A stretch of 63,946 nucleotides of DNA, the filler included, from Stramenopiles sp. TOSAG23-6 (Eukaryota), in the NCBI GenBank assembly GCA_900128565.1. It is 33 parts of 33 records of this genome, joined end to end, with 100 filler letters (N's around TTAATTAATTAA, not from the genome) between each part and the next. Parts side by side here need not be neighbours in the genome. Positions count along the whole stretch, not along the records: positions 46,648 to 47,998 come from LT639193.1; 32 more parts are not named here. One strand, written 5' to 3'. The notes under the pieces are model-generated. The model was not told the origin of the DNA. It made no database searches and saw only the letters and a list, made by a program, of their open reading frames with translations. The position numbers and the translations under genes are program-made. Shown one piece after another: positions 46,747 to 47,947 of the stretch. The first letter of the stretch is position 1. The number at the start of each line of letters is the position of its first letter.

Positions 46747-47947
46747 ATGGAAATTGTTCATCTTCAGTATCGACAACGGATCCATTTTTGCAATTCATGA
46801 TATAAAGTGAATCAATATTGTCAGTAGACGATGATCGTACACATATATTGAAAAAAATATGTCAAATGTAAATATTATTATTGTTAGGTACAAAATTTCC
46901 TACAAAAAAAAAAAAAAAATTATAAAAATGTCCAAAAAAAATATAAAATATAAATTAGAAATTGAAATGATGAAAACGTACATTTGATACGTTGATTGCA
47001 ATATGGTCCACCCCATCCAGACTCACACAAACATGAACATTGTTTAGCATATCCTATAGGCTTTCCATGAATACCACAATTAATTACACCCGCATCAATT
47101 TCATTTTGATTGCCTGTAGAATTATCACCTGCATTTGGTTCTGTACATATTTTTGGGGAACAAATTTCTGCATCATTTAAAAATTGACCAATATCACATT
47201 TAATTGTTGTGGGTATACATGTATTTTGGAAAATATTTCAAAAAAAAAAATCAAAAAAAAATTGTTAGGTACAAAATTTCGTATGAAAAAAAAAATATTT
47301 TTTTTTGTAAAAAAAAATAAAAATACAATCTTGCACGACAATTAAGGATCCAGTAGAACTACAGCGTAATGAGCCATCAACATAACCATCTTTGCATTGA
47401 TGTTGACATATCTCTCCAGGTTGACATGAAGTGCCAGGTTTAACATTTATATGTTTTTTTGTATCTATAAAGGAATTTGTTGTACATGTATTTTGGAAAA
47501 ATATTTCAAAAAAATCTAAAAAAATTTGTTAGGTACAAAATTTTTATAAAAAAAAAAAATTCAATTTTTTTGTAAAAAAAAAAAATAAAACATACATGGC
47601 GAAATAGATTTTGGAGTTGAAAAATTAACTGCCCAAGGAGCCATTTCAACATTTGGTGAAGACACAACCTATATTGTGAAAAAATATTTTTTTCATTTTT
47701 TTTGTTAGGTACAAAATTGCGTACGAAAAAAAAATTTAGATAAAAAATTGAAAAAAAAACATACCTTTGGAATTTCAGGGTTTACTAATTTACTCATGAA
47801 TAACCGACCACGAGACTTTACAACCGGAGTATTTATTGTATTATTTTTTTTTGGTGTTTTTTGTACATGTAGAGAATTTCTATCACAAAACGATGACGAA
47901 GCTTTACACGTGAAAAGTCGCAAAATTCCATCTTCACCCCCTGTAAC
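46747..47947 (-). CDS. Cys-rich EGF-like extracellular protein fragment, five exons
   Basis: CSCLCESGWGGPYC; open frame after removing 47669-47764 (AG) and 47486-47595, 47219-47326, 46843-46981 (AT). Confidence 0.75.

Follow-up and report, generated by a model that had tools for sequence, protein, structure and literature searches.

GT...AT splicing of a very abundant, probably introner-like intron family in draft contigs of Stramenopiles sp. TOSAG23-6

How might a gene come to be interrupted by a 108-nt element which ends in AT as an intron, which begins and ends with complementary sequence, and which shares its interior with elements found in unrelated genes? This question is raised by positions 47219-47326 (minus strand) of a 63,946-nt stretch of DNA from Stramenopiles sp. 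TOSAG23-6 (assembly GCA_900128565.1), a stretch that is described here as ‘the window’. The window consists of 33 contigs joined via linkers of the form N44-TTAATTAATTAA-N44, so neighbouring parts are not one chromosome piece. A preliminary description of the flagged element had suggested an origin as an introner that is like a miniature inverted-repeat transposable element (MITE), i.e., an insertion with terminal inverted repeats and with a duplicated AT target serving as splice acceptor. As considered below, the element is a real spliceosomal intron, and GT...AT splicing of a very abundant intron family is the best-supported point of this analysis. More specifically, the element probably is a U2-type spliceosomal intron and a member of a single introner-like family that is very abundant as well as internally homologous. 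As a member of that family, which is found in an AT-rich marine protist, it is a candidate for a new kind of self-copying intron, one with a non-canonical 3′ AT. The features in and around the element are as follows, where ORF is open reading frame.

47219..47326, minus strand: flagged intron, 108 nt, with GT at 47326-47325 and its AT end at 47220-47219 (from RNA contigs and frame).
47318..47326, minus strand: 5′ splice-site block GTATTTTTA (from alignment of 37 unique copies, consensus GTA[TC]GTTTT).
47262..47285, minus strand: internal block, CATACGAA plus ATTTTGTACCTAACAA (from core matches and alignment).
47219..47239, minus strand: 3′ block GAAATATTTTCCAAAATACAT, with the non-canonical AT end (from alignment).
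47327..47487, minus strand: upstream exon of a cysteine-rich gene, EGF-like by eye (from RNA contig pieces 47323-47487 and ORF); a Pfam search with the neighbouring exon gave no match.
46982..47218, minus strand: downstream exon, cysteine-rich (from RNA contig pieces 46980-47214 and ORF 46920-47237).
46843..46981, minus strand: GT..AT family intron of 139 nt that neighbours the flagged one, GTACGTTTTCAT subfamily (RNA skip 46841-46979 with a 4-nt ambiguity; frame open).
47669..47764, minus strand: family intron, 96 nt, canonical GT..AG, with 3′ end CACAATATAG (from an RNA contig).
47486..47595, minus strand: family intron, 110 nt, GTATGTTTT..CCAAAATACAT, with a probable contig mis-join inside.

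Evidence of splicing begins with RNA, in the form of Logan contigs from environmental samples (polyA metatranscriptomes), not same-cell reads. Two such contigs, rec17 (run X5, 1377 nt) and rec24 (run X7, 765 nt), align to 46745-46840, 46980-47214 and 47323-47487, pieces which adjoin one another in the record, and thereby skip 139 nt and exactly 108 nt, that is, the neighbouring and the flagged introns. A third, rec19, joins 47600-47666 to 47763-47842 and so skips 96 nt at the GT..AG member. The stretch around the flagged intron is present as well in a small DNA run, X1, which probably is the source run, along with seawater metagenomes and polyA seawater metatranscriptomes. Contigs of run X1 span the exon-element borders, and the element thus is present in DNA. 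The match of rec17 stops at 47487, being followed by unlike sequence, and a different RNA contig covers 47600-47842; the window contig of 46648-47998 probably has been mis-joined through the intron repeat at 47486-47595.

Repeats at the borders leave the flagged boundary ambiguous over 5 nt, with TGTAT on both sides. A GT..AT reading fits here and an AT..AC reading does not, and the frame across the junction is open only with removal of 108 nt. What is removed is GTAT...ATAC plus one AT, and the same rule restores frame as well as homology in other genes, among them the following.

25177..25841, minus strand: three GT..AT family introns (25841-25731, 25464-25365 and 25269-25177) of a kinesin-14-like gene (from homology and frame).
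58732..58830 (GT..AG) and 59010..59113 (GT..AT), plus strand: two family introns of a class I fumarate hydratase gene (from tblastn homology).
22615..22705, plus strand: family intron in an unrelated gene on another contig, 92.5% identical over its full length to 25269-25177 (from pairwise global alignment).

With fumarase, residues 427|428 and 487|488 of the bacterial homologue P0123 are consecutive across the two introns (tblastn). With kinesin, the exons that border 25464-25365 and those that border 25269-25177 match residues which are consecutive in solved kinesin-14 motors, i.e., residues 135|136 of 3l1c_A and, with a split codon, residues 110 to 116 of 5wde_A. The kinesin copies, by boundary, would allow GT..AT and AT..AC both, and GT..AT is the only sensible reading that is common to all copies. 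A longer-protein search for the fumarase gene's own transcripts, made with a fumarase exon, returned only bacterial fumarases (86-93% identity), one of which served for the junction comparison. One apparent anomaly in this gene was rejected: the last six intron bases at 58397-58402 match the ‘RH’ of the fumarase homologue, a match judged to be coincidental, with this CACAAGACAT subfamily end occurring also at 10007 and 27297.

Reading frames supply the broadest evidence. Choosing splice sites so as to maximize ORFs does not discriminate, since T-rich introns are themselves open in some frames, and that approach was replaced by signal-defined ends along with a control in which the acceptor is shifted. 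Given signal-defined ends, 20 of 23 curated introns yield a single open frame over 18+18 codons, versus only 6-10 of 23 upon moving the acceptor by 1-2 nt. Choice of AT can be seen even with AG close by, as in the intron of 27453-27297, where the AG that precedes the AT by 4 nt is not in frame and the AT itself is, restoring the HxHxDH of a metallo-beta-lactamase. Altogether, three family introns are skipped in RNA, five further junctions fit homologues, and the frame test stands with these. The preliminary claim that the element and one AT are removed together accordingly has held up, as based on RNA, fumarase, kinesin and frame alike.

The curated set on which these counts are based was drawn by hand from 64 loose core matches (≤3 mismatches), giving 23 complete unique copies, 13 5′-only junctions and 14 3′-only junctions. 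An automatic calling of boundaries, with one model per end, had missed most of the GTACG/CACAAT subfamily, and hand curation from core matches was used in its place. Left out were duplicates, copies cut by N, and copies with ends that could not be placed (2166, 2743, 42859, 46097, 35484, 35559, 39107, 39023, 29229, 29462, 22916, 648 and 473).

As judged from the 37 aligned unique copies, family introns are about 90-160 nt in length and carry three conserved blocks that are joined by T/A-rich linkers of varying length. Block A is AT|GTA[TC]GTTTT, which in one subfamily goes on with CAT(TATGAATTTC). Block B is TTT[CG][AG]TA[CG][GA]AA followed by ATTTTGTACCTAACAA, that is, a near-palindrome around GTAC plus CTAAC. 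Block C is TTTTTGAAATATTTTT[TC]CA[AC]AATA[CT]A[TG], with the 3′ block ending in CAAAATACAT. The CTAAC of block B is a putative branch site given its likeness to the yeast motif TACTAAC, and in the flagged copy the branch A would then be near 47265, at a distance of about 46 nt from the 3′ end.

First bases are GT at 34 of 36 5′ junctions (GG and GC once each), preceded by AT at 26 of the 36. The last two removed bases are AT at 32 of 37 3′ junctions (about 86%) and AG at the other 5, with the following exon beginning with G in 22 of 37 and with GT in 12 of 37. In the AG-ending members CACAATACAG and CACAATATAG, the AG occupies the exact position that AT does in other copies. Both ends are of type 1, i.e., GTATGTTTT...CCAAAATACAT, in 8 of the 23 complete unique copies, which bears out these ends as recurring elsewhere, as the preliminary description had put it. 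Variant 5′ ends, GGATGTTTT and GCATGTTTT, are present at the homologous position at window sites 8795 (plus) and 43800 (minus). In the kinesin gene near 24880 (minus), as read from sequence, an exon ends ...MNER and is followed by ACGTTTTCAT, without GT, and some boundaries may slide relative to the element.

Are these copies one family or instead many introns sharing signals? The 16-mer ATTTTGTACCTAACAA, allowing ≤2 mismatches, has 56 matches in the window versus 0.20 expected, with none of 100 shuffles reaching 56, and full-length identities between copies in unrelated genes reach 0.925, 0.891 and 0.865, with 0.72 the best for a shuffled pair. The sharing of internal sequence by unrelated genes, as previously described, thus is confirmed, and many full-length-similar copies are found in unrelated genes as is the case with introners. 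Nor is the resemblance limited to the blocks: between blocks A and B the linkers share 23 complex 10-mers (mean 2.1 and maximum 14 over 200 shuffles), with the linker motif AATTTCGAATTTAT found in 4-5 copies on different contigs. Given this high full-length identity along with subfamily linker motifs, the similarity exceeds that of shared splice signals. Furthermore, 5′ and 3′ subtypes are linked (counts of 8/5/1/9, Fisher p = 0.029), and intron phases 0/1/2 are near-uniform, at 7/8/5.

Copies also occur in arrangements with one another. Head-to-tail twins without an exon between them are found at 9847-10007 and 58253-58402, with the inner junction again ...AT|GT... The second unit of the latter twin is without block B and yet lies where fumarase homology demands removal, so the core is not an obligatory signal. 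One intron has two core blocks (35619 to about 35435, minus), and another, 39145-38995 (minus, AG end), holds an antisense partial copy (core 39107, plus) with the 5′ block of the host intron repeated directly on either side of it. The twins, the two-core intron and the nested antisense fragment have the look of newer copies inserted within or beside existing ones. Taken as a one-window sample, the linker motifs, top identities, linked subtypes, twins and phases favour descent from master copies over convergence of signals.

Run X1 shows that the family is very large there. Of 99615 contigs in that run, 9148 (about 9%) match the 1351-nt stretch at ≥90% likeness, almost all of them on intron parts, and 2704 do so at ≥99% likeness. 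Summed depth in X1 is 10^5-10^6 over intron parts and about 184 over exons, a depth that is not a copy number. A 19-nt family pattern gave 31 loci in metagenomes, 30 of them chance matches and one a true copy. The latter (L019; 3.2 kb, 35% GC, marine metagenome) holds an in-gene copy, AACAT|GTATGTTTTAG...TTCACAATACAT|GG, and is not an orthologue. In viral contigs the same pattern had no matches.

How might such a family work and spread? As envisaged, a U2-type spliceosome would recognize a yeast-like 5′ GUAUGU along with, as branch site, CUAAC within block B, and would take as 3′ site the AU that follows a conserved CAAAAUAC, even with AG nearby. The family would have spread by copy insertion, preferentially at ...AT|G(T)... 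sites, and the 5′ junction of the element would recreate the insertion site, which would explain twin copies. Insertion could be via a DNA transposon with a 2-bp AT duplication, via an element ending T...A that enters an A|T step without duplication, or via RNA, i.e., reverse splicing. Among these considerations, we lean slightly towards the element carrying its own terminal AT. A more sweeping version is that most introns of this uncultured marine protist were made by one mobile element, one which brings a GT donor as well as a branch site and uses an AT acceptor, with the acceptor being either a duplicated 2-bp AT target or the element's last bases, and with the major spliceosome accepting AU normally. 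The protist would then have arrived independently at what Fritillaria (below) shows, and GT-AT would be a new splice-site class among introners. That combination of claims is a tentative one, and we are inclined to doubt that all of it is correct.

Several points weigh against the introner-like reading. Spread by insertion is something that we infer, from full-length similarity, linked subfamilies, head-to-tail twins and near-uniform phases, rather than something seen. Median pairwise identity is 0.67, only modestly greater than the 0.60 of shuffles, a modesty that follows from T-rich, low-complexity sequence, and about half of each copy consists of blocks which in principle might be splicing signals of unusual length. 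The copies seen are co-oriented, with none clearly intergenic, such that a DNA transposon is not required. Not every intron belongs to the family, as at least one candidate indicates: an intron at 53591 / 55041 (minus), upstream of a CAF16-like ORF, that is GT...AG without a core block. Lastly, between the RNA contigs and the window there are 2-5 differing letters in each aligned piece (96-235 nt), and every aligned RNA piece has one difference that is not itemized.

An origin from a non-autonomous DNA transposon is one alternative, that is, a MITE with GTAT...ATAC inverted repeats and a 2-bp AT duplication of which the second AT is the acceptor. In its favour is the flagged copy, where on the minus strand GTATTTT...AAAATAC is followed by AT, and where the inverted repeat of 7 nt is perfect (47320-47326 / 47221-47227), just as had been described. 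The repeat shortens elsewhere to 4 nt in the commonest subfamily (GTAT/ATAC) and to about 3 nt in the GTACGTTTTCAT (GTACG) subfamily, and a copy's own 5′ end matches the reverse complement of its own 3′ end little better than do mismatched copies (mean local scores of 7.2 and 6.7, versus 6.1 for shuffles, sd 1.4). Family-specific terminal inverted repeats of at least about 10 bp, as would be expected of MITEs, thus are not what is found. An 11/12 inverted repeat at copy 45515+ would be the exception, and as an element end it was rejected, as its 3′ arm is exonic, with the splice site coming ahead of that arm according to reading frame. RNA folds of 12 copies range in z from -3.39 to +1.47, with only 2 below -2, and pairing between the ends within them either is absent or extends to 4 bp, or to 7 bp for the flagged copy.

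AT does stand before most elements and at the end of most, and removal is of element plus one AT, as a duplicated target would have it. On comparing matches within copies to those across copies, a test described by Gozashti et al., within-copy match at positions -2 and -1 is 0.83 and 0.78, versus 0.83 and 0.73 across copies. There is a slight, non-significant within-copy excess at -3, and 5′ and 3′ flanks match in 15 of 23 copies where about 14 are expected. AT...AT, that is, is a family-wide consensus with no demonstrable per-copy duplication, and so of the claim of AT[element]AT flanks it is the consensus which stands, with the duplication putative. A claim of two copies flanked TT...TT is not borne out: TT is the 5′ flank in 3 of 36, and AT is the end of both complete ones among these, 3199-3056 and the flagged copy. 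Complete copies lacking AT as 5′ flank number 6, of which 5 end in AT and the sixth is AG/AG; since non-AT-flanked copies still end in AT, an element-borne AT fits better than does a duplicated target. Indeed, because AT is its own reverse complement, a direct repeat of AT is indistinguishable from an extra inverted-repeat pair, and insertion into an A|T step of an element with T...A ends would produce AT...AT without any duplication. A palindromic tendency at the empty sites of AT/AT copies is weak, with one of four symmetric pairs raised (0.50 vs 0.20, n=14), and does not convince. A scan of 20 window ORFs found no transposase domain that would mark an autonomous partner. All window copies are in gene sense orientation other than the antisense fragment within intron 39145-38995, and within the window none is clearly intergenic, where MITEs would be expected in both orientations, outside of genes, and along with an autonomous partner. 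Nor did DNA runs X1 and X3 offer a joint equal to deletion of the intron among the 15 of 543 joints listed, which is uninformative on empty sites. With none of its defining features demonstrated, though the model is not refuted, a MITE is an unlikely source of the family, and what is supported of the proposed MITE-like origin is a repeated, introner-like family of introns.

If not a transposon, then perhaps nothing mobile at all: vertically inherited ordinary introns might bear exceptionally long, strict signals separated by T-rich filler, as in hemiascomycete yeasts (GTATGT / TACTAAC), with which the family has in common a near-invariant GTATGT and a CTAAC-type branch motif, and whose uniformity could pass for that of a repeat family. 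That the three blocks are the most conserved portions of copies, and that the filler is low-complexity T/A with the median identity just noted, would be as expected. Unlike strict-signal yeast introns, however, the family displays linker similarity, subfamilies, pairs at 92.5% identity and 3′ AT. Complex linker motifs limited to some copies, such identity over full length between unrelated genes, linkage of 5′ and 3′ variants, tandem twins, a coreless twin member that fumarase homology requires be spliced out, and an even distribution of phases all count against this, and a non-mobile origin seems to us quite improbable. A transformed minor-spliceosome (U12-like) class, tolerant of varied 3′ dinucleotides, is far less probable still. 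The U12 consensus consists of a 5′ site of [AG]TATCCTT and a branch motif of TCCTTAAC about 10-26 nt from the 3′ end, which 5′ GTAT and an internal CCTAAC loosely resemble, and the non-AG 3′ dinucleotide would be in keeping. Positions +5 to +7 of the 5′ site nevertheless are GTT rather than CCT (GTA[TC]GTTTT), the CTAAC with its putative branch A is too far from the 3′ end, at about 46 nt in the flagged copy, and GTATGT with CTAAC fits U2-type, yeast-like signals at least equally. Excision of DNA, without any RNA intron, as seen with the TA-bounded internal eliminated sequences of ciliates, has a formal likeness, since there too are short AT-rich elements with short inverted ends, bounded by a 2-bp repeat that is retained once. 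DNA contigs of X1, however, span the borders and the joined form is found only in RNA runs, among the matches listed, though contigs cannot prove absence. Copies furthermore have clear 5′ splice-site and branch-site motifs, and ORFs are open under the standard genetic code. Somatic excision of this sort we take to be extremely improbable.

The U2-type, introner-like reading that is favoured here can be placed beside known systems. The introners of Micromonas pusilla and Aureococcus anophagefferens, together with 548 families (PMC9860276), likewise are short non-coding repeats which serve as introns of many unrelated genes, and both they and the present family are found in sense orientation, carry splice signals in part or in full, and upon splicing restore the original mRNA length. 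Duplications are reported in 49 of 130 of those families and inverted repeats in 72 of 177, such that many families are without a demonstrable duplication or inverted repeat (PMC9860276; Gozashti et al. 2022). Known introners differ, however, in beginning with GT, GC or GA and ending with AG, whereas the present family ends with AT in 32 of 37. Curated surveys accept only AG and AC 3′ sites and discard unsupported odd families (PMC12130899). As surveys depend on annotated introns, they would pass over a GT..AT family whose draft genome has no annotation.

Amoebophrya (strains A25 and A120; PMC7789003) likewise is a marine protist with repeated, non-GT/AG introns, short direct repeats that overlap boundaries, inverted repeats at ends, and no internal transposase. 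Those inverted repeats are of 8-20 nt and form hairpins, there is no dominant dinucleotide pair, the genome is GC-rich, and U1 is described as undetected in either strain (PMC7789003). Unlike with Amoebophrya, the present family has a strong, canonical GT, end pairing of 4-7 bp, mostly insignificant folds, and a dominant GT..AT pair. Nonconventional introns as known from euglenids, diplonemids and Amoebophrya, which are without a conserved 5′ GT and have their two ends drawn together by extended base pairing, thus are not what is seen, given GT in 34 of 36 and no more than 4-7 bp of pairing between ends. Another comparison is with the larvacean Fritillaria borealis (PMC13326754), in which there is genome-scale use of 3′ AT/AC by a U2-type spliceosome and a proposed link to introner transposons having weak sites. 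Fritillaria is an animal, however, with 5′ ends that are mostly non-GT, 95% of introns escaping GT/AG, purine-rich 3′ regions and a duplicated U2AF (PMC13326754), whereas the present family has 5′ GT, T-rich tracts and a protist host. Within the literature that was searchable, nothing was found joining GT-AT with introners or introners with MAST-4, though supplementary species tables of the surveys could contain the lineage. Searching the literature by family motif gave only primer tables among the matches listed, and two single-cell stramenopile genome papers hold nothing on intron type in the passages found.

Should GT...AT be dominant genome-wide, then the 3′ AG rule would be relaxed in a second, unrelated lineage besides larvaceans, providing a natural system in which to study selection of the 3′ site by U2AF and the catalytic core. 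The code would be explained if the branch-binding strand of U2 were complementary to TACCTAAC, or instead if the small subunit of U2AF had altered zinc fingers or paralogues; Rfam at gathering threshold had 0 matches over the whole window, and hence offers no small nuclear RNA for comparison. From a more practical perspective, correct gene prediction in this host requires a GT..AT rule, and introner surveys and annotation pipelines that assume AG/AC could be missing whole intron populations in drafts from uncultured plankton. As both organism and family are visible in seawater metagenomes and metatranscriptomes, the family also would be a good candidate for catching intron gain in action.

The host probably is an uncultured, AT-rich marine protist, a stramenopile by best protein hits as opposed to by tree. 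GC content is 22-39% in most window contigs. Genes of the window are ordinary eukaryotic ones, i.e., for kinesin, MAP-kinase-like, DHHC, WD40, FYVE, ALIX-like and EF-hand proteins, along with the class I fumarate hydratase and a CAF16-like ABC ATPase. For the CAF16-like protein, 13 of 120 listed relatives carry an organism name, about 8 of which we take to be stramenopiles, at 44-52% identity, and unnamed environmental relatives reach 62-71% identity. Two contigs, 23347-24706 and 30645-32001, have a GC of 52-55% and are without family introns, and carry a WD40/M35 peptidase-like ORF and a HECT-domain ORF; these two may be from another organism in the same sample.

Two contigs of the window are about 9.4 kb in size and the remaining 31 are of 1349-1361 bp, in falling order. 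ORFs of 794, 1131 and 949 aa at 9487-18863 are without a family intron, and short contigs have about one per 250 nt. Either introns are distributed very unevenly, or breakage of the assembly at the repeat is what makes short contigs short. Contigs 52451-53800 and 53901-55250 are exact duplicates, and 58251-59599, 59700-61048 and 61149-62497 are alike save for one N. As possible alleles, duplicate contigs within the window are exact copies with no allelic difference.

A telomere-like word, TAGGGTTAGGG, is present 25 times in the window versus 0.01 expected, e.g., at 234-256, 1515-1542, 2328-2398, 8979-8989, 46244-46281 and 51209-51237, and also in L019 at about 890-950 (minus). It is found inside of ORFs (where it reads NPNP, GLGL or TLTL), close to the ends of genes, and in family introns at 1965 and 29488. 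Often the word lies within local tandem duplications, these having periods of 18-36 nt and keeping the frame.

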